Below are positions 5,117 through 25,569 of a stretch of 44,752 nt of DNA, in pieces (within the stretch, counting starts at the first letter, position 1; each line of letters starts with the position of its first letter). The notes below the pieces were generated by a model, which was not told the origin of the DNA, did no database searches, and was given only the letters and a program-made list of their open reading frames with translations. Source of the DNA: a virus (lineage: Duplodnaviria; Heunggongvirae; Uroviricota; Caudoviricetes); the IMG/VR virus record IMGVR_UViG_2671180296_000008, positions 1 through 44,752 of that record; one strand, written 5' to 3'. Position numbers and translations under genes: made by a program.

Positions 5117-6157
5117 TTATGCTCTGCTTGATTCAGTGATTTTGGAATCCTGCATTTTAGTAATCATACCCATAATTTTATGCCTAAGCTTTTCCATTGG
5201 GTTTTCGATTAGATAAAAACTTACCGCCCCAACTAAGATTGATGCTACCATCGTTGCTATATACATATAGAAACTGATTCCTACGTACCACACACCCATT
5301 GCTAGAATCAGGAAGTGCCATAGGTATATAGAGAAGCTCCATTTACCAATGTAAGACATTAACGGTGTTGACAGAGCCCAAGCAAATACACCTTCTCCAT
5401 AGCTCATTAGCAGAACAATGAGTCCAAATATTGGCGCATAGAAAATAAATTTGTTGAGAACCCATCCATCAGTAAACCCACCAGTTAACTTCCACATAAC
5501 TTTAGGCAGTGCAATAAGCATTGATACAATAAAGAACAGGAAGGCTATATCAGACAACTCTTGACCAATTTTAAGGAAATTATCGTGATAGAGAAATGCT
5601 GCAATCATTCCGCAAGCAAACAGTGGGAAATACCACATCACCATTCCGCCATACGCACTATCCATCGCAGGGTACAATCCCTGTAGCAATACAGCCAGTG
5701 CGAAAATAAGGAATGCCGCTGCTTTTCCATTGTACACTTTTTGAATTGCGACACCAGCATACGCAAAGAATGGAAGTATGAAGTAGAATTTATACTCAAT
5801 TGGTATTGTCCAGAAATGAAGCACGGCCTCTTTCATCGTTATGATTGAGATTGCCGTATTCAAATCAAAATACCCAAAATATGAATACACGAGAACAGCT
5901 ATTGCGAACACCGGAAGGATTCTCATTGTTCTTCCAAGGAAATAACTTAAAAGAGACCGCCAGGAAAATCCGGTAGAAATAAATCTACTGGTTAGCAAAA
6001 ATGCGCTGAGAACAAAGAATATCCAAACGCCAAACTGTGAACTTCCACCAAGCATAACCTCATACTCATGAAAATATATTCCTGTAGCGTGGGCTATTAT
6101 TACAAGGAATACCGCTATTGCCCTTAGTCCATCAAGAGACTTGATTTTACCTTTCAT
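5117..6157 (-). CDS. Acyltransferase-3 family membrane protein, Oac-like O-antigen acetyltransferase (candidate lysogenic conversion gene)
   Basis: Multi-pass membrane ORF with the LDGLRAIAVFLVIIAHA motif typical of Acyl_transf_3; start placed at MKGKIKSLDGLRA (ATG 6157), the ORF track extends to 6244; AT-rich. Confidence 0.7.
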   Translation of the reverse strand: MKGKIKSLDGLRAIAVFLVIIAHATGIYFHEYEVMLGGSSQFGVWIFFVLSAFLLTSRFISTGFSWRSLLSYFLGRTMRILPVFAIAVLVYSYFGYFDLNTAISIITMKEAVLHFWTIPIEYKFYFILPFFAYAGVAIQKVYNGKAAAFLIFALAVLLQGLYPAMDSAYGGMVMWYFPLFACGMIAAFLYHDNFLKIGQELSDIAFLFFIVSMLIALPKVMWKLTGGFTDGWVLNKFIFYAPIFGLIVLLMSYGEGVFAWALSTPLMSYIGKWSFSIYLWHFLILAMGVWYVGISFYMYIATMVASILVGAVSFYLIENPMEKLRHKIMGMITKMQDSKITESSRA

Positions 6158-6240
6158 TTCTTTCCCAGATATGGAGTGAACATCTGCGAAAATGTAGCAC
6201 ATTTCAAGGTAAACAAGAAGCGCATCCATGCGCATTTTCA

Positions 6241-8160
6241 TCACCCTGCCTTGGTGTATGTCCAGTTAAATGTTGTTGTTCCCTGGCTTGTGATGGTTAC
6301 AATCCTTCCTGTCACTGTAAATGATATCAACCCTCCTGACTTAAGCGGAGTTAAAGTAAGTGTTGTTCCGTCCCACATGGCAAGCTGAAGCGAAGAGAAA
6401 TTTGTTCCACTGCTTTCTGCCCAAACGCTTATCAGGTACATCCCTTGGCTATTTGGCAGTTCAAACAACGTAGTTGCTACGTTAGCTGCAACAGCCTGAG
6501 TTCCTTTCGCTGTGTACACTGCTGGCAACTGATTACCTGCAGAGCTTCGTGATTCAACATATGAGCCTGAAGTTTGCGTCCCAGTTAATGAGCAGTCAGT
6601 AAATACTCCATTCCCTGTGCTGTAAGTTGATATTACAGGAGTCCCACCAGTCGGAGCCTTAAACCGGCATCCCTCAGCAATTATTTTTGCTGTTGAGTCT
6701 GTCAGCAATGTGTTTGGGTATCCAGAGCCAGTGTAGGTTATTGATTCGCTATCAAGGAAGCTATCGGTACTTGATTTTATGTTAACAATGCTTGTGCCTG
6801 TTGCAAAGATAAATGCTGCTGTCCCACTCCCCGTTGTTTGCATTGAGTTTCCATGCCCGGCCAATCCTGATATATGGGCAATAGTATCATTAAGTTTTAT
6901 ATACGACGCAGTAATTCCATTTGTATTTTTTATTATATTAGACTCACCATCATACCCTGTAATAGTAAGACACTTACATCCAGAAAAATATAACCCTGAG
7001 GAATCAAATGTATATTGCGACCCGTCAACTGTGATCTGGTCTCCTGCACAGTTTATTAGCTGAGGAGACAGGCAATTTACAACATACCATGCCTGTGCTG
7101 CATCCAGCACATAACATGTATCCCACTGTATTGTCGTTCCGTTCGCCTTATAGAAACCATGCGCAACTCTCCTCGCCCATACCTGGGTATACTTTGTTAG
7201 GTAATTTCCAGAGTCATCATATATGGCCCACCATGCACCATCAACCTCAACATTTTTAATGTGCATAACGCCTGGTGAAGTAGTTCCTCCATCAATTAGA
7301 ATGCCAATTTTACCATCATTGCCAGTAGGTGATGTAGGGCGTCCTCCATCGTAAAAAATATAGACATTTTCAATATTTATTGTATTAAACGCTGCGTGGT
7401 AATGGAAACAAGCTATATTTCCTATTACTGCTATGAAAGTTTCCGGCCTATTTATGTTGCTGTTTGTTTCGCCATTTATTGTGCAGTTTGAATTCATCTC
7501 TATCGTTGCATTTACGAAGTAAGTTCCAGATGTCAATAATACATTCCGCCCTGTATTAATTGCGGCCTGTATGCCTGCATAGTCAAGAGACTGAGTTAGT
7601 GATGTTACGAATGGATAAACAGCCTGCGCCGCTGATAGTGTGGAGAATTTCTCGCTGAGTGGATGCAGAGTTCCGTCAGCTGTTGCACCGAAATCCTTGG
7701 CTGAAATGAAGTTGGTATTTTTATCATGTTGAGTTAAAGCTATTGAGCCGATATATGGCTGCTTAACTGCAACTAGTGCATCTCCCATTCCATCAGCATC
7801 GCTTTCTAACTGCTGCTTAAACTGATCAGGGTCATACTTCAGCACATTAGGAAAATAGAACTGCTGTGCACCATACGCATCATATACAGCCATAGAATGG
7901 CCTTGCACAGTTACGAACTTGGCAATCTGTCCGTTATATACAGGGTAACCAGCGGCGTTAATGATGATTGGTTGCGAAACAGGAACGTGAGAGCCGTCTT
8001 CGTTCTCTACATAAACCTGAATCTGGTTTTCAGGATTTACCGGGTCAGTGTCAATTTTACCGATATAAATTTTGCCATTGGCTACGGCTTTAAAAGAACG
8101 AGCCATAGTGAAGAGTTGCGAAGGCATGCTTACCACAACATTTGCGGTGATATCTGACAT
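6241..8160 (-). CDS. Tailspike protein with P22-type N-terminal head-binding domain and a distinct receptor-binding domain
   Basis: N-terminus [59 protein letters not shown]... matches the P22 gp9 head-binding domain by recollection; the rest is divergent. Confidence 0.85.
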
Positions 8161-8281
8161 TTCATTGCTCCAGACGAATGATATGATGCAACCATGATGT
8201 GATTGCATACCGAAATGGTACTATTGAGTATTTATCCAGTAGGTTACGATGCCATTCCACCCAACTGGTGAGGCATCAAGG

Positions 8282-8548
8282 ATGTACAGCAAATACGATG
8301 AGGCGCAGTTTCACTTGAGACTTCCGCATGAACTCCACGCGAAAATTAAGCAGCGTGCGAAGATGAATAACAGATCGCTGAACTCAGAGATAATTGCAGC
8401 GATTGAAGAATCGTTGACTAAACAAAGCTCTGTATCCGTTTACATTGACGATGCAGAGCGTATGGCAGAACAACAATCTGATATGGTTAAGAAAATGGTT
8501 TTTGAAACGCTTAAGACCATGTATAGCAATAATAAAAAGGAAACATAG
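8282..8548 (+). CDS. mnt: Mnt-like ribbon-helix-helix repressor
   Basis: MYSKYDEAQFHLRLPHELHAKIKQRAKMNNRSLNSEI...VKKMVFETLK resembles P22 Mnt by recollection; divergent from the tailspike gene. Confidence 0.6.
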   Translation: MYSKYDEAQFHLRLPHELHAKIKQRAKMNNRSLNSEIIAAIEESLTKQSSVSVYIDDAERMAEQQSDMVKKMVFETLKTMYSNNKKET

Positions 8549-8618
8549 AAATCTAGTTTCCGGATAAAATGGCATTGCCTTCATGATATCCTGTGAAAAA
8601 CTAAGGAGAGTTAACCAT

Positions 8619-9104
8619 ATGAAAAAATCACTGTTAATTATCCCGCTTCTGCTGGTTGGATGCGCAAAAGTAAGTGACTATCAAGCAAGTTGCGAACAAC
8701 GCTATCAAAAGCTTAGCGATATGGCTAATTGCCTTGATGCCAGTGTGAAGAACGACTCACGCATGGCATCAGCACCAACACCTAAGCTGTATGTCCTTGC
8801 TGCAAAGATGCTCGGGCAAGGTGTCGATGAAGGCAAGATAAGTGACGCACAGGCAAGACTTGAGCTTCAGAATCTTTATGTTCAATTACAAAGCCAAGAA
8901 CAAGCCCAACAAATAGCACAAAGCCAAGCATTCCAGCAGGCTTTATTGAATTATCAGGCTGTAAACACAATGCAAGCGATCGAGCAAAAAGCGCGCCAGC
9001 CTGTTATAACTCAACCTTACCCAACACGCGTTGACACATATACAAACTGCAATTCAGGGTTTGGAAATACAGTCACATGCAACAGTAGCAGTAACATAAG
9101 ATAA
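8619..9104 (+). CDS. Lipoprotein of unknown function, Gln-rich (candidate lysogen-expressed exclusion factor)
   Basis: MKKSLLIIPLLLVGC lipobox signal peptide; AGGAG about 10 nt upstream of ATG 8619; immediately follows mnt on the same strand. Confidence 0.6.
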   Translation: MKKSLLIIPLLLVGCAKVSDYQASCEQRYQKLSDMANCLDASVKNDSRMASAPTPKLYVLAAKMLGQGVDEGKISDAQARLELQNLYVQLQSQEQAQQIAQSQAFQQALLNYQAVNTMQAIEQKARQPVITQPYPTRVDTYTNCNSGFGNTVTCNSSSNIR

Positions 9105-9194
9105 CAATCAGCAAAGGTATCGCCTATGCAGAGTGGTACGATAAACCTCGCGTTCTACATATTTGGTTTTTGCACGTTCCTGGTGTTTGAAAAG

Positions 9195-11192
9195 CTATTC
9201 TGACAACGCATCAGACTTAGCCCCCTGCGTCAGAGCGTTAATTGCCTTTTGTGCCTGCTGCATTGCTTTCTCAAAGGCTGTTGATCCGCGTGGGGTGTTT
9301 GCCATTCGGAGCATTGCATTTCTGAATGGTTCGCTCTCATAGGCGCGAGTAAGAAGTCCGTAGCTTACCGCTGCGCCAGTTGTCGCCGGGTTCATTGCCG
9401 TCCCATACCCGATAATGAACGGGATGGTTTGCTGCCCTGTTGGTGTTGTTACTGCCGCTTTTGCAGCCTGCTGCGTGGATTGCAGGTAGTTTTTCAATCC
9501 TTTCAGATAAGCAGCGTCCTGCCCCTTAAATGTGATGCCAGTCTGGTTTTGCAGGATGTTAAGTTGTCGAAGGAACTGATCAGGGGAACCACCTGATTTC
9601 TCCATCGCCTTTCCAATGATGCCATTGCGCATTTGCGCCCTGCCAACACGACCAACTGAGTTATACAGCGTCTTAATTTCCGATTTGTTCTTGCTGAATA
9701 GCATGTTGTTGACAACTTCCGGCGTCAGGTCGCCTTTCATGAGAACATTCTTCAGCCTGGTATTCTTTAGTTTCGCCGCTTCGTCAGCGTAGACGGCATT
9801 GGCCTGCTGATATTTACGGAGAGTATCGTTGCCCAGATTCTGACCAATGGCACCATTGATATCGTCGGTCATCGCCTTGTAAACACGTTGAATGGCGGCA
9901 TCGGAACGGTTTGGTAACACTGGTCGCTCCCCCTTCACGTCCATTCTGAACTGGCTGCGCAGATCGCTTAATTGCTTCAAATCCAGATTAACCGGACCAT
10001 CAGGGCCAGCATTGCGAACAAGCTCATCACGATATGACTGAAGTTTTGAAATAGTCTCGTTATCAGCAACCTTACCAAGCTTCTGCAGGTTAGATATTTC
10101 TGTATCAATCTGCTGAATTGCTCGCGCAGGCTGAATGTTTACTCCAGCCATAGCATTCTGAACCTGCTCCAGTCGATTACCGGCGGCACGACGAATTCCT
10201 GATGCTTTCGCTTTAAGGCTGTCAATAACAACTGCTGGATCATACTCACCGAATTTATCAGCAAATCTCTGCACCAACTGGCTTCTCGCTTCCTGTTGCG
10301 TTGCTCTCATTCCACTTGTGCCAGCCAGAGGGATATTTTCTGCTGTAGTCTGCGCCATTTTTCCGACGCGGGAAGTTGGTTGTAACAGGTCTGTGGTGTG
10401 CAGAGGAACTCCTTCACGCTCTGCAAATCTGATAGCCTGCTGCGCTTCTGGCGCGATAGCACCACGAACGCCACGATAAGCAGCACCTAATCCACGTCCG
10501 GCAGCGTTAATAGCACCGCCAGCAAGTACACCAACGCCTAAATCGGTGGCGAGTGCTTCCGCATCATCTTTCGCACTATTTGCAGCAAGTGATCCAACTG
10601 CGTTTTCTGCTAGAAGGCGAGTTGCCCCCTGAGCAATTCGACCAGCAAGTGTTGGTGCCTGTGTTGCCGCTCTCTCAACGCCAGCAGGAGTGAGGTAAGG
10701 CAATGCTTCAGCAAACACCCTGCCCTCTGTAGTTTGTGGAGTCAGCGCGCCTTGCTGAAGGCCAAAGTCCTGCTCTAATCCCTGCGTTGTTACTCGTGGC
10801 GCTGGTTGATATGTACCATCGCCAATGCCGAGTTTACCGCCAGCCCAAGCCGCCGCGCTTGTTACAGCATCTGCAACTGATGCAGGTATGTTTGCCACGT
10901 TCACGCCAGCCTGCACCAGTCCGCGACCAGTCTCTTTCACTGCTTCACCAAGATCAGACATAAATCCACTTTGCTGTGGTTGTTGCTGTGCTACTGGTTG
11001 CTGTGTATCCACTGGCTGCACAGATGGCAATGGATAGGCAGCATAGAAAGCTTGCTTAGCCTGCTCTGCATTTTCTCCGGCTTGCGGGGCCACGACTTCA
11101 TTGAAGTATTGCTCCTGAGCCTGCGCTTTTTGTTCTGGTGCTAACGCCTGATACTGTGGAGAGGCGATAACATCTTTCCATGCTTTAGCCAT
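9195..11192 (-). CDS. DNA-ejection (internal virion) protein, P22 gp16-like
   Basis: 665-aa Ala/Gln/Gly-rich ORF in the gp16 position after gp20. Confidence 0.7.
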   Translation of the reverse strand: MAKAWKDVIASPQYQALAPEQKAQAQEQYFNEVVAPQAGENAEQAKQAFYAAYPLPSVQPVDTQQPVAQQQPQQSGFMSDLGEAVKETGRGLVQAGVNVANIPASVADAVTSAAAWAGGKLGIGDGTYQPAPRVTTQGLEQDFGLQQGALTPQTTEGRVFAEALPYLTPAGVERAATQAPTLAGRIAQGATRLLAENAVGSLAANSAKDDAEALATDLGVGVLAGGAINAAGRGLGAAYRGVRGAIAPEAQQAIRFAEREGVPLHTTDLLQPTSRVGKMAQTTAENIPLAGTSGMRATQQEARSQLVQRFADKFGEYDPAVVIDSLKAKASGIRRAAGNRLEQVQNAMAGVNIQPARAIQQIDTEISNLQKLGKVADNETISKLQSYRDELVRNAGPDGPVNLDLKQLSDLRSQFRMDVKGERPVLPNRSDAAIQRVYKAMTDDINGAIGQNLGNDTLRKYQQANAVYADEAAKLKNTRLKNVLMKGDLTPEVVNNMLFSKNKSEIKTLYNSVGRVGRAQMRNGIIGKAMEKSGGSPDQFLRQLNILQNQTGITFKGQDAAYLKGLKNYLQSTQQAAKAAVTTPTGQQTIPFIIGYGTAMNPATTGAAVSYGLLTRAYESEPFRNAMLRMANTPRGSTAFEKAMQQAQKAINALTQGAKSDALSE

Positions 11193-12493
11193 TAATCACC
11201 CCATAGTGAAGAAAAGTTACTGCCAGTAGTAGATTGTTGCCCTGGCATATTCTGCACCGGCTCCTGATAATCAAACTGTTTTTTAACAGTGCTCAACTTG
11301 CTTTCAAGCTGATTTCTAATCTTTCCGATAGAGTCACGAAAAGCCTTTTCACTCATTTTGGGACTTAGGGCACCAACCGCATCGGATAGTTTTTTACCCT
11401 CAGCATCTGAAAGAGCGCCCATACCCTTCAGGGACTGCACCATAGGAAGGAATGTTTGAGCTTTAAAGGTGTCGAGCCTTGCTTCAAAGTTAGCCGCATC
11501 AGAACCAGGAACTGTCGGAAACGCGGAGCGAATTCCTACTGCTTTTGAAAGGCCGGGGCTTTGCTCTATCTCGTTGAGAGAATCAAGCGCGGTGCTGAAC
11601 GTATCAACTGCACCCTGAGCGGCGGCCTGCCTGTCAGCGCGTGCTATGTCAGCCTTTTGCCGAACATCTGCCTGTTTCTGTTTTAGCTCTTCAAGTTTTA
11701 ACTGATTGCTTTCTCTGGCTATCTGTCTGTCCAGAGCCTTTTCTTGTAATTCTGCTCTTTGTATTTCACGGGAAAGAGCAGCATTCTGTGCGCTGATGTT
11801 CTGTCCACGTATCTGGATGTCCTGACCTCGAGCTGTTAGAGCTTCTCCTGCCTGATTGCTGCGGATTGTCTCTGCAAGTTTTCCGCGATCAATCTCACGC
11901 CCAACGATTCTGTCTTGCGCCTGAAAATATTGTTCTGGACCAAGTGCAGCCATTCCAAGGTGATCAACAAACTCTGTGAAACCTTGTGGATTTTGCTGAT
12001 ACATTTTAGCCACATCCAGAGGGTCTACTCCGGCACGAGTAAGCTCAGATGAGTTGTTCTGCAACCATGACATCATGGCTTCTGGAGATGAAGCTGCGAG
12101 TCTGGCACTTGCTGCCAGTGTACCGACAGTGGAACGCTGGTCTTCATCGACAAATTTCATGCCGTTTCTTACAGCGTCAAACTGCTCAGGATACTGTGAT
12201 GCCAGTTTTCGCATTGCATCGCGGTCACCAGATGTATATGCATCAGCATAAGCCTGCTGAAACTCTTGCTGCCGCTTCTGCTGATCCATCTGCTTATACA
12301 TATCCATGACAGATGAAATACCCTGCAAAGCCTGCAAGCCAACGTTATTACGTCCTGAACGCTCCATCTCATTATTCTGTCGAATGTATGCAAGCGTGGC
12401 GTCTGCATCACTTGCTCTTGGAGCGTTGGAGTTCATGCCGCCTAACCCGGCAAGAAGCGCGCCTGAATTACCAGCCTGTTGCCATGTAGCCAA
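11192..12493 (-). CDS. DNA-ejection protein, P22 gp20-like
   Basis: 433-aa ORF at the conserved position; coiled-coil-rich. Confidence 0.7.
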   Translation of the reverse strand: MATWQQAGNSGALLAGLGGMNSNAPRASDADATLAYIRQNNEMERSGRNNVGLQALQGISSVMDMYKQMDQQKRQQEFQQAYADAYTSGDRDAMRKLASQYPEQFDAVRNGMKFVDEDQRSTVGTLAASARLAASSPEAMMSWLQNNSSELTRAGVDPLDVAKMYQQNPQGFTEFVDHLGMAALGPEQYFQAQDRIVGREIDRGKLAETIRSNQAGEALTARGQDIQIRGQNISAQNAALSREIQRAELQEKALDRQIARESNQLKLEELKQKQADVRQKADIARADRQAAAQGAVDTFSTALDSLNEIEQSPGLSKAVGIRSAFPTVPGSDAANFEARLDTFKAQTFLPMVQSLKGMGALSDAEGKKLSDAVGALSPKMSEKAFRDSIGKIRNQLESKLSTVKKQFDYQEPVQNMPGQQSTTGSNFSSLWGD

Positions 12494-23521: not shown

Positions 23522-24007
23522 TTATTTCAGTTCGTTACCAGGCATTTCTTTTAGCTCTTTCAAATGACAACGATTGAGACTAAACCACTCCCCGTGCGAC
23601 CTATAGTTGTAATATTTTTGGTGCAATTTGGTTTCAAGCTCTCTATCGGCCGGAATCTTTGCAATTAGATTTAGCTTCCCACCACTCATGCGAGATATCT
23701 CTGAAATCCGTTTATTAACTCTGCGACTAAACCCTATTTTTGTTAGCCCACTATCTTCAGCATGCAGAACGTACACATATGATTTTTGCGAAGCACTGGG
23801 TGCGACTTTGTTGTAATTAATCATGTCAAACATGAAGCCTTGCTTTAGCAAAGTTTCAAAAAAGATAGAATTAACACACCCATTCCTTCTCAGCTCTGCA
23901 CTTAGCTTGTCAATTTCCTCTATGATGTCGCCAGACCCCTTTCCACTTATAAGAAAATCTTGGTACATGCGACCAATTCTTGAGGTAATTTCAACAAAGT
24001 TATTCAT
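23522..24007 (-). CDS. T5orf172/GIY-YIG-like domain protein (moron; candidate nuclease)
   Basis: C-terminal SYVYVLHAEDSGLTKIGFSRRVNKRISEI...HGEWFSL fits the T5orf172 (GIY-YIG-like) pattern by recollection; AT-rich; unrecognised N-terminal ~75 aa. Confidence 0.55.
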   Translation of the reverse strand: MNNFVEITSRIGRMYQDFLISGKGSGDIIEEIDKLSAELRRNGCVNSIFFETLLKQGFMFDMINYNKVAPSASQKSYVYVLHAEDSGLTKIGFSRRVNKRISEISRMSGGKLNLIAKIPADRELETKLHQKYYNYRSHGEWFSLNRCHLKELKEMPGNELK

Positions 24008-24351: not shown

Positions 24352-24789
24352 TCATCGAAGGCATTGCGTCATGATGTACTCCTGCAGGTAGTTAACCTGC
24401 GCGGTTATCCTGTCGATTCCGCTTCGGAGACGGTAATAATTGAGTTCAGCATCTGCTGTAAGTCTTGGGCTTTCTCCATCGCCCATGCTGCTGGCTCCGG
24501 TCGTTGACTTTGCACAGGTGGCGGCGACTTGCAGCCGCTTACGCCCAGCAGAAACATCATCACGGAGACTTTCGATAGTCGCGTTAGCATCAGCAAGCTC
24601 CTTTGTGTATCTGGCGTCGAGTTCTGCTACATCACGTTGACGCTTCTGCATGTCAGCGATTGTGGATGTGGCCTTATCGCGCTGCTCTTTGTAGGCGATT
24701 GCGTTATCACGGTAATGATTAACAGCCCATGACAGGCAGACGATGATACAGATAACCAGAGCAGAGATAATCGCGGTTACTCTGCTCAT
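24352..24789 (-). CDS. Rz: Spanin inner-membrane subunit Rz (lambda-type)
   Basis: [31 protein letters not shown]... matches lambda Rz by recollection. Confidence 0.85.
24405..24596 (-). CDS. Rz1: Spanin outer-membrane lipoprotein Rz1, embedded in Rz in another frame
   Basis: Embedded ORF with LLGVSGC lipobox and Pro-rich segment; start uncertain. Confidence 0.7.
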
Positions 24790-25262
24790 ACCTCAATCTC
24801 TCTGACCGCTCCGCCAGCTTCTTTGAATTTTGCAATCAGGCTGTCAGCCTTATGCTCGAACTGACCATAACCAGCGCCCGGCAGTGAAGCCCAGATATTG
24901 CTGCAACGGTCGATAGCCTGACGGATATCACCGCGGTCAATCATCGGCAAAGCGCCACGCTCCTTAATCTGCTGCAATGCCACAGCGTCCTGGCTTTTGG
25001 GAGAGAAGTCTTTCAGGCCAAGCTGCTTACGGTAGGCATCCCACCAACGGGAAAGAAGCTGGTAACGTCCGGCGGCTGTTGATTTGAGTTTTGGGTTTAG
25101 CGTGACAAGTTTGCGAGGGTGATCGGAGTAATCAGTGAATAGTTCTCCCCCTACAATGACGTCATAACCATGATTTCTGGTTTTCTGACGTCCGTTATCA
25201 GTTCCCTCTGACCATGCCAGCATATCGAGGAACGCCTTACGTTGATTATTGATTTCCACCAT
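24786..25262 (-). CDS. R: Endolysin R (lambda-type lytic transglycosylase)
   Basis: [39 protein letters not shown]... matches lambda R by recollection. Confidence 0.9.
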
Positions 25263-25569
25263 CTTCTACTCCGGCTTTTTTAGCAGCGAAGCGTTTGATA
25301 AGCGAACCAATCGAGTCAGTACCGATGTAGCCGATAAACACGCTCGTGATATAAGCGAGATTGCTACTTAGTCCGGCGAAGTCGAGAAGGTCACGAATGA
25401 ACCAGGCGATAATGGCGCACATCGTTGCGTCGATTACTGTTTTTGTAAACGCACCGCCATTATACCTGCCGCGAAGGTACGCCATTGCAAACGCAAGGAT
25501 TGCCCCGATGCCTTGTTCCTTTGCCGCGAGAATGGCGGCTAACAGGTCATGTTTTTCTGGCATCTTCAT
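25246..25569 (-). CDS. S: Holin S (lambda-type, dual start)
   Basis: [39 protein letters not shown]... matches lambda S107/S105 by recollection. Confidence 0.9.

Follow-up and report, generated by a model that had tools for sequence, protein, structure and literature searches.

The 44,752 nucleotides (nt) analyzed here (IMG/VR record IMGVR_UViG_2671180296_000008, positions 1–44,752; hereafter "the window") are a segment of an Escherichia coli chromosome with a P22-like (Lederbergvirus) prophage, whose late operon lies on the − strand. Between its tailspike gene and its homologue of P22 gene 16, the prophage encodes on the + strand a Mnt-family repressor (mnt, 8282–8548) and a lipoprotein (8619–9104). 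Villafane et al. (2008; PMC2629481) introduced the name "ant moron" for the variable DNA of P22-like phages in this interval. Taken as a whole, the locus is probably best explained as a reduced ant moron in which an intact mnt gene is accompanied by a lipoprotein cassette that occupies the slot of sieA and is transcribed from the prophage. The Mnt protein is an ordinary family member in a reduced context, and the new points concern the lipoprotein: the position of its gene next to gene 16, its exchange with sieA, its constancy beside varied tailspikes, and the transcription of an orthologue in a lysogen carrying the prophage Gally.

The lipoprotein gene is an exact cassette alternative to sieA and lies in the sieA slot. 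The swap can be read in a related locus (L088). Here a stretch of 1,622 nt that starts with ant, continues over arc, mnt, and orf59a, and ends 7 nt short of the GTG start codon of sieA shows 92.8% identity to P22. The lipoprotein open reading frame (ORF) then stands in place of that of sieA, and the homology picks up again in the C-terminal portion of gene 16. The left junction of the swap falls at the Shine-Dalgarno sequence (...TTTTTTCATGGTATCCTGCACAAAACTAAGGAG / GTTGGTGTG in P22 versus ...TTTTTTCATGGTATCCTGCGCAAAACTAAGGAG / AGTTAATTATATG in the sister loci), and the sister prophages keep the whole PsieA region and the ribosome-binding site before the lipoprotein gene. For a single chromosomal copy of P22 sieA, the 85 bp upstream, which include the putative PsieA, suffice to give SieA function (PMC10883804). 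Because this region is kept upstream, the lipoprotein gene of the sister prophages is under PsieA. In the window, a remnant of the P22 sieA 5′ region is found at 8580–8608 (+ strand; 25 of 29 nt identical). It holds an extended −10-like motif, TGnTATCCT (8584–8592), and the shared Shine-Dalgarno sequence AAGGAG (8603–8608), and the annotated −35 element of PsieA is replaced by the end of mnt. Searches by tblastn, with type A SieA as the only query, detected no P22-type sieA in the window or in any of the lipoprotein loci. A preliminary description of the window had placed the lipoprotein gene at the immI/sieA position, and the replacement of the sieA ORF behind the PsieA region in the sister prophages bears this out.

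The lipoprotein gene was correctly recognized in that description as lying on the same strand as mnt, after a 70-nt gap (8549–8618) and a ribosome-binding site, here AAGGAG at 8603–8608, 10 nt upstream of the ATG. The encoded protein of 161 amino acids (aa) begins MKKSLLIIPLLLVGC, in which a positive N-terminus and a hydrophobic stretch are followed by a conserved lipobox of the form [LVI][ASTVI][GAS]C. The predicted signal peptide comprises residues 1–14, with lipidation at Cys15 and Ala at position +2. Among 24 homologues, which come from at least eight enterobacterial genera, Cys15 never varies and Gly14 hardly does, and Cys15 is at least 90% conserved in 125 members of the wider family. 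According to the standard +2 rule, the residue at this position directs lipoprotein sorting and Ala predicts the outer membrane. Because position +2 is Ala and not Asp, the protein is predicted to be sorted to the outer membrane; it is probably lipidated at Cys15 and held in the inner leaflet. The ratio of nonsynonymous to synonymous substitution rates (dN/dS) relative to orthologues is 0.04–0.13, and thus the ORF is a real, constrained coding gene.

An AlphaFold2 model built from an alignment of 125 sequences (mean predicted local distance difference test score 79.8, and above 90 for residues 21–90) shows a four-helix bundle carrying the conserved residues Cys25 and Cys38. The last helix of the bundle continues as a long Gln-rich helix to approximately residue 125, followed by a flexible linker and a C-terminal beta-hairpin with conserved cysteines (TxC...G...CxS motif). 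The conserved cysteine pairs suggest that the protein is probably periplasmic and disulfide-bonded. The term "Gln-rich," first applied to the lipoprotein as a whole, fits the long helix (approximately residues 92–125) but not the entire protein. Homology and structure searches, which the preliminary description had recommended, returned nothing informative beyond phrog_6067 (PHROGs), a family of unknown function: we obtained no informative match from Pfam, NCBIfam, or PADLOC and no informative fold match, and a profile search of the protein database returned the close family alone. A weak match to GspK was set aside as due to the Gln-rich helix. The wider family comprises 249 clusters, and its remote homologues are mostly on contigs too short for gene context. 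A role as an o-spanin (Rz1-like) was rejected, as the lysis cassette is in another part of the window (approximately 24352–25569) and the lipoprotein gene lies on the strand opposite to the late genes.

In the 90 nt that separate the lipoprotein gene from gene 16 there is also a 25-codon ORF (9126–9203, + strand) for a hydrophobic peptide, MQSGTINLAFYIFGFCTFLVFEKLF. VSe13 has an ORF of equal length at the equivalent position, with approximately nine amino-acid changes, and loci with another gene 16 type lack the segment; this ORF could encode a small membrane peptide or have arisen by chance.

To place the lipoprotein gene in context, approximately 95 loci were gathered (80 of them from IMG/VR) and classed by their content between the tailspike and lipoprotein genes. 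At least 10 layouts occur among the E. coli and Salmonella loci, and the lipoprotein is at least 95% identical across all of them. The arrangement of the window, mnt of the window type followed by the lipoprotein gene, is found in 42 loci. Ten loci have a Gally-type mnt, a reverse-strand lipoprotein gene, and then the lipoprotein gene (an order of mnt, reverse-strand gene, and lipoprotein gene is seen in VSe13 and Gally), another ten have a Gally-type mnt with orf59a, and eight have ant and mnt. Further layouts include a complete ant-arc-mnt-orf59a series before the lipoprotein gene, orf59a with the lipoprotein gene, and, in one E. coli-type locus (L074), the lipoprotein gene alone. Conversely, Sf101 carries the window-type mnt alone. 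Distant copies of the lipoprotein (48–63% identical) occur by themselves in Morganella, Yersinia ruckeri, and a metagenome-assembled genome, and Tatumella terrea has ant, an arc-like gene, and mnt together with a lipoprotein that is 60% identical. Throughout, the lipoprotein gene adjoins the 3′ end of gene 16 in convergent orientation (all of the approximately 90 loci with both flanks), a position kept in Escherichia, Salmonella, Morganella, Yersinia, Providencia, and Tatumella. The lipoprotein gene is a cassette separate from mnt, since it is found with a full immI region, with mnt only, or alone, and because the layouts vary, the pairing of mnt and lipoprotein gene in the window represents one mosaic combination among many.

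The module as such is not rare. The original survey of ant morons distinguished ten types in sixteen genomes, among which ST64T, ST104, and Para1 had only mnt plus one functionally uncharacterized gene, and the prophage of E. coli B7A was among the sources for figure 3 of that study (PMC2629481). The copy of the module in B7A covers the full query and is 97.1% identical. Among 5,426 complete E. coli genomes, the mnt-lipoprotein module is present at full coverage in at least 105, the tailspike N-terminus with an adjoining mnt of the window type in 255, and the tailspike head-binding module in approximately 1,165. The Mnt-only arrangement is ordinary and not new, and the region is a mosaic of a known kind that is common in E. 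coli.

Blocking of receptors or of DNA entry had been named as frequent for phage lipoproteins in such positions, and the neighboring tailspikes argue against a block directed at the receptor of the phage itself. Clustering of the receptor domains at 70% identity or more divides the 72 complete tailspikes encoded beside the lipoprotein gene (loci L016–L095) into 53 clusters, approximately 48 of which stand beside lipoproteins that are at least 95% identical. Because the lipoprotein is constant across these receptor domains, it is unlikely to block the particular O-antigen receptor that its own phage uses. The neighboring gene 16 also comes in several types. Whatever its function, the lipoprotein acts on something common to these phages or to their hosts. 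As a separate observation, the 53 clusters beside a near-constant lipoprotein indicate that tailspike receptor domains are exchanged fast at the junction of gene 16 and the tailspike gene.

Evidence for transcription in a lysogen comes from published RNA sequencing (RNA-seq) of the prophage Gally in the adherent-invasive E. coli strain LF82, whose lipoprotein GALLYPH_13 is 97.5% identical to that of the window. In units of log2(fpkm+5), where fpkm denotes fragments per kilobase per million, GALLYPH_13 reached 6.29 and 5.96 in overnight culture in lysogeny broth (LB), 7.9–8.2 in two non-macrophage conditions (B1 and B6), and, in macrophages, 10.3 at 1 h and 8.5–8.7 at 6 h, and the Gally gene 16 homologue stayed at 3.6–4.1 throughout (PMC9928086, S1 Table). 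In the window, the only candidate terminator after mnt is a weak hairpin (6-bp stem, 11-nt loop) that lacks a T run; since this is not convincing, transcripts from a Pmnt-like promoter could plausibly continue into the lipoprotein gene. No terminator-like site was found on the + strand of 8000–9300, and RNA structure after the lipoprotein gene was not significant (z = 0.14).

The same data set draws attention to a second, unrelated small lipoprotein, GALLYPH_14 (beginning MKRIIGVVAGAILLSGC; L003 1964–2383), whose gene follows mnt, precedes the lipoprotein gene, and is on the strand opposite to both. Genes of this type occur in Gally-type morons (loci L072–L094). Apart from the c2 repressor gene, GALLYPH_14 was the top-transcribed Gally gene in four of the five RNA-seq conditions, the exception being overnight LB, with log2 values up to 11.0.

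The other member of the pair, mnt (8282–8548, + strand), encodes a ribbon-helix-helix repressor of 88 aa, and its recognition as a Mnt-like gene divergent from the tailspike gene stands. The product has an N-terminal, Arc-like DNA-binding domain (Pfam Arc, PF03869; 2.3e-15, 56.6 bits against a cut-off of 20.4) and a C-terminal, coiled-coil tetramerization domain (Pfam Repressor_Mnt, PF11423; 4.1e-12, 46 bits against a cut-off of 20.9), and is 49% identical to P22 Mnt over 76 aa. Its best matches among solved structures are 1mnt (1.4e-19) and, for the C-terminal domain, 1qey (1.1e-6). The same start codon was chosen by the NCBI Prokaryotic Genome Annotation Pipeline in a prophage that is 99.7% identical, and dN/dS values of 0.1–0.3 indicate purifying selection. 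Thus, mnt is an intact, selectively maintained, and genuine Mnt-family repressor gene adjoining the tailspike gene. The role of Mnt in P22 immI immunity is established from P22 genetics. We found no arc or ant anywhere in the window by tblastn with P22 Arc and Ant, in agreement with the preliminary description, and the 121-nt spacer between the tailspike gene and mnt is too short for either gene; arc, ant, and sar have been lost from this moron.

The divergent spacer (8161–8281) was compared with those of Sf101, VSe13, L027, Gally, ST64T, and P22. Its mnt-proximal part, from approximately position 8205, travels with mnt, and the part to the left differs in relatives; three different left-hand contexts place the boundary of the mnt module just outside a candidate Mnt operator. 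This candidate, CATACCGAAATGGTACT (TACC-N5-GGTA, 8206–8222), emerged from alignment of the mnt-proximal DNA of P22, ST64T, Gally, Providencia, VSe13, Tatumella, and the window. It lies directly upstream of the Pmnt −35 element, where P22 has its 17-bp Mnt operator AGGTCCACCGTGGACCT and ST64T has AAGACCACGGTGGTCTT. In addition, the recognition strand of Mnt changes in step with the DNA, the pairs being HFNFR and TCCAC in P22, QFNLR and ACCAC in Gally and ST64T, and QFHLR and TACC in the window; read by eye, Tatumella morbirosei apparently shares the QFH motif together with a TAC-containing site. As a palindrome the candidate operator is weak, with symmetry limited to 4+4 bases. Near-identical relatives differ in its left half (TACA, TATC, TGCC) and agree in its right half, and no second copy was found in the window.

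Promoter-like sites in the spacer are weak. On the + strand, the Pmnt equivalent TTGAGT-15 nt-TACGAT (8224–8250), aligned to P22 Pmnt (TTGAGA-17-TATCAT), reaches a position-weight score of 6.9, where the best sites of 540-nt stretches have a background median of 8.1, and its 15-nt spacer is suboptimal, versus 17 nt in VSe13. On the − strand, facing the tailspike gene, the Pant equivalent ATGGCA-17 nt-AATACT (8227–8255; P22 Pant is TTGACA-17-TATATT) matches 8 of 12 consensus positions, scores 6.3 against the same median, and was not reported by the consensus scan; this promoter-like site is degenerate. Its predicted start lies inside the candidate operator, as in P22. Across 8100–8640 no promoter-like site on either strand rose above the window background (best 9.2, with a median best per 540 nt of 8.1), and the consensus scan returned fewer sites than shuffled controls.

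Several further features of this spacer were recorded. The 15-nt Pmnt-like spacer is present in 14 of 16 intergenic variants of the E. coli type (probably in all 16, by eye), and the 2-nt deletion relative to VSe13 affects both divergent promoter-like sites together. An inverted repeat, ATGCAACCA-N5-TGATTGCAT (8186–8208), lies 26–48 nt upstream of the tailspike ATG and is unique in the window (a single copy versus 0 expected by chance). One natural variant gives perfectly complementary arms, L027 and VSe13, relatives whose left flank is another one, lack the repeat, and its RNA fold in the tailspike leader was not significant (z = −1.1). In some relatives (L021 and L056, with an intergenic region of 734 nt, and E. 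coli H33 and H114) an HNH endonuclease gene stands between the tailspike start and the mnt promoter region, together with a short duplication of the tailspike 5′ end, and looks like a homing-endonuclease insertion at the junction.

Comparison with known systems helps to define what is particular to this locus. It resembles the mnt-only ant morons of ST64T, ST104, and Sf101 in lying between gene 16 and the tailspike gene, in its orientation against the late operon, in having a mnt homologue beside the tailspike gene, and in a promoter and operator region laid out as in P22. It differs in lacking arc, ant, sar, orf59a, and sieA, and in a Mnt with a different recognition strand (QFHLR) and a different, poorly symmetric candidate operator. 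It is also set apart by the lipoprotein gene, which is absent from P22, ST64T, and Sf101. Both the arc and ant genes (with the sar antisense RNA) and the strong Pant promoter that mark a complete P22 immI region are missing.

The lipoprotein shares with P22 SieA the slot beside the gene 16 3′ end, the strand, PsieA and the ribosome-binding site in the sister prophages, and expression from the prophage, shown for sieA and for the Gally lipoprotein orthologue. However, the two proteins have no sequence similarity (tblastn). SieA resides in the inner membrane and is predicted to have transmembrane helices (PMC10883804), whereas the window protein has only a cleavable lipoprotein signal and a predicted outer-membrane anchor that would expose it to the periplasm; an exclusion function for it is conjectural. 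Like T5 Llp and the Cor proteins of phi80, N15, and T1, which exclude phages by inactivating FhuA, it is a small phage lipoprotein predicted to lie on the periplasmic face of the outer membrane, and in the minimal loci its gene adjoins, and is divergent from, that of the receptor-binding protein. The Cor or Llp type suggested for it initially nevertheless finds no counterpart in sequence or fold, and the same holds for the Bor family. Of 22 lipoprotein family members, one matched the Cor PHROG, and did so weakly (3.7e-4); the lipoprotein profile aligned with T5 Llp (8a60_B) over positions 1–31 only, signal peptide included, at E = 0.39. Moreover, Llp and Cor have approximately 60–80 aa, as against 161 aa here, and each is matched to a particular protein receptor, whereas the window lipoprotein is independent of the receptor specificity of the tailspike. 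Lambda Bor/Iss are likewise prophage-expressed outer-membrane lipoprotein morons among late genes, but the window protein has no Lambda_Bor match and occupies a different locus. Finally, STnc6030 of BTP1 comes from the same junction, runs against the late operon, and is expressed in the lysogen; unlike the conserved protein encoded in the window, it is non-coding and specific to the BTP1 sequence.

From these elements a working model can be assembled. The mnt and lipoprotein genes would be expressed from the prophage, with transcription opposed to that of the late operon and driven by a Pmnt-like promoter with read-through, by the PsieA remnant, or by both. Mnt would most likely autoregulate the mnt-lipoprotein unit and keep a residual tailspike-directed promoter quiet. 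The lipoprotein, anchored in the outer membrane, may present a probably disulfide-bonded helical bundle to the periplasm and would most likely alter the envelope of the lysogen. Superinfection exclusion is our leading guess for its function, although a tentative one; it could act at a step common to P22-like phages, for example the assembly of the ejection-protein conduit across the periplasm, and not at the O-antigen receptor. This guess is favored because of the exact swap with sieA and the fixed position beside the ejection-protein genes, because the predicted periplasmic location is the site where the gp7/gp16/gp20 conduit forms (PMC10883804), and because in BTP1 the same junction is the origin of STnc6030, which gives immunity to superinfection (PMC7067206). 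In its most specific form, which we put forward only as a speculative possibility, the lipoprotein would found a new family of outer-membrane-anchored, periplasm-facing exclusion proteins, swapped for SieA and blocking conduit or needle penetration by P22-like phages whatever their O-antigen specificity.

Several observations weigh against parts of this model. The window keeps just 29 nt of the PsieA region and has no promoter-like site above background. In LB, GALLYPH_13 was 4.5-fold above the prophage median, just under the 5-fold moron cut-off of the authors, and for this reason Gally was reported as moron-free (PMC9928086). The Gally upstream region differs from that of the window apart from the ribosome-binding site, so that the evidence for expression in the lysogen, obtained for the Gally orthologue, carries over to the window only in part. 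Deletion of the Gally mnt left the survival of LF82 in macrophages, the sole phenotype tested, unchanged (PMC9928086). We found no functional test of the lipoprotein in the literature searched. Finally, at least one wider-family gene lies in an ordinary chromosomal setting (L096), which would be compatible with a cellular role unrelated to phages, and such chromosomal relatives, together with the induction in macrophages, count toward a host-directed role.

Such a role is the first alternative to exclusion: in the manner of lambda Bor, the lipoprotein could be a host-fitness or virulence moron that changes the envelope for survival in serum, in macrophages, or under stress, with no part in the exclusion of phages. 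We regard this as about as probable as exclusion, and far from established. The rise of the Gally orthologue in LF82 within macrophages (log2 of 10.3 at 1 h versus approximately 6 in LB), the relatives in ordinary chromosomal contexts, and the constancy across approximately 50 tailspike specificities, which is expected of a host-directed function, all speak for it. On the other hand, the transcripts of the five Gally genes located at that prophage end all increase in macrophages, and the induction may be regional and not specific to the lipoprotein gene; the protein matches neither Lambda_Bor nor any other known virulence lipoprotein family; and its confinement, within Enterobacterales, to the junction of gene 16 and the tailspike gene, with the exact sieA swap, suggests a phage-directed role. 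It is very improbable that the active product is instead the RNA, i.e., that an unterminated mnt-lipoprotein transcript, antisense to the gene 16 3′ end, silences the late transcripts of superinfecting relatives. The absence of a + strand terminator-like site or of significant structure after the lipoprotein gene, and the immunity conferred by STnc6030 of BTP1 from the same junction, would fit such a mechanism, but the 3′ flank of the lipoprotein gene changes with the gene 16 type and the protein is conserved across genera whose DNA has diverged to saturation. Given the strong purifying selection on the lipoprotein ORF, we conclude that the protein is the selected product.

The remaining alternatives assign the function of the locus to Mnt. 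In one, Mnt binds an operator within 8161–8281 and gates a Pant-like promoter into the tailspike gene, independently of the late promoter. Consistent with this, the P22 geometry is kept, with a Pant-equivalent site facing the tailspike gene and its predicted start inside the candidate operator, and an influence of Mnt and Arc on tailspike levels has been suggested in the literature (PMC2629481). In addition, the tailspike transcript of Gally, which has mnt only, rises from log2 3.9 to 7.8 while the upstream late genes are silent (PMC9928086), so that transcription into the tailspike gene independent of the late promoter does occur there. However, the mnt and tailspike transcripts of Gally rise together, where repression predicts otherwise, and we found no −10 element at the aligned Pant position of Gally (by eye only). 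As the Pant-equivalent site also scores below the background median and was missed by the consensus scan, and the left half of the candidate operator is variable among near-identical relatives, we consider such gating unlikely. Less likely still is an orphan immunity in which the prophage Mnt represses the ant promoter of incoming P22-like phages with the same operator type and so shields the prophage from induction by antirepressor. The established part of Mnt in P22 immI immunity (P22 genetics; PMC2629481), the frequency of the window-type mnt in E. coli (255 genomes), and its intactness under purifying selection despite the lack of an ant of its own to control would be in keeping with it. 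Against this, among the E. coli matches listed the window-type mnt is always beside a tailspike gene, we saw no ant-linked copy with this operator type, and the candidate operator has no second copy in the window.

The surroundings of the locus are those of a P22-like prophage. The tailspike gene (P22 gene 9 homologue, 6241–8160, − strand, with its start at 8160 in the ORF list; Pfam Head_binding, 1.9e-67) encodes a conserved N-terminal head-binding domain and a variable receptor domain. The gene 16 homologue (9195–11192, − strand), convergent with the lipoprotein gene, encodes an ejection (DNA transfer) protein (phrog_770, 1.2e-238) that is 33.5% identical to P22 gp16 over approximately 580 aa, and is adjoined by a gene 20 homologue (11192–12493, − strand). 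Downstream of the tailspike gene, a gene for an acyltransferase (Acyl_transf_3, O-antigen acetylase-like; 5117–6244, − strand) reads in the same direction and has a 4-nt overlap with the tailspike stop codon, which suggests co-transcription of the two genes; in the near-identical prophage PEC408 the acyltransferase gene is on the other strand. A T5orf172/MUG113-domain gene (23522–24007, − strand) is found where PEC408 and P22 have a Rha-family regulator gene. The left host flank consists of mlaA, yfdC, and a tRNA-Arg gene (anticodon CCT, 2870–2944), followed by the integrase gene, and the prophage is integrated at this tRNA-Arg gene of E. coli. Outside the prophage, an IS1 terminal inverted repeat lies beside mlaA (731–753), and one scanned ORF, most likely ORF 1–504 (− strand), matched DDE_Tnp_IS1, the IS1 transposase family. 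A LacY-family gene at the right end of the window is presumably like that of the sucrose permease CscB, which is normally near the argW tRNA gene; a rearrangement reading of this right-end gene was dropped for this reason.

The Mnt-only layout raises the question of what the repressor of an antirepressor does once the antirepressor is gone. The part of the locus most worth following is, however, the lipoprotein, an uncharacterized and widespread protein, predicted to lie in the envelope, that is transcribed in at least one lysogen and can reasonably be regarded as a candidate new phage-exclusion or host-fitness factor. P22-like prophages are common in E. coli (approximately 1,165 of 5,426 genomes), which gives the locus its relevance. 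We know of post-adsorption exclusion of short-tailed phages from SieA only. Should the lipoprotein prove to be a second, unrelated exclusion protein that swaps with sieA behind one and the same promoter, it would offer a natural comparison for blocking of the conduit from the outer-membrane side. If it instead serves the host, its strong induction within macrophages would mark it as a candidate fitness factor in adherent-invasive E. coli, one narrowly missed by the published 5-fold threshold.

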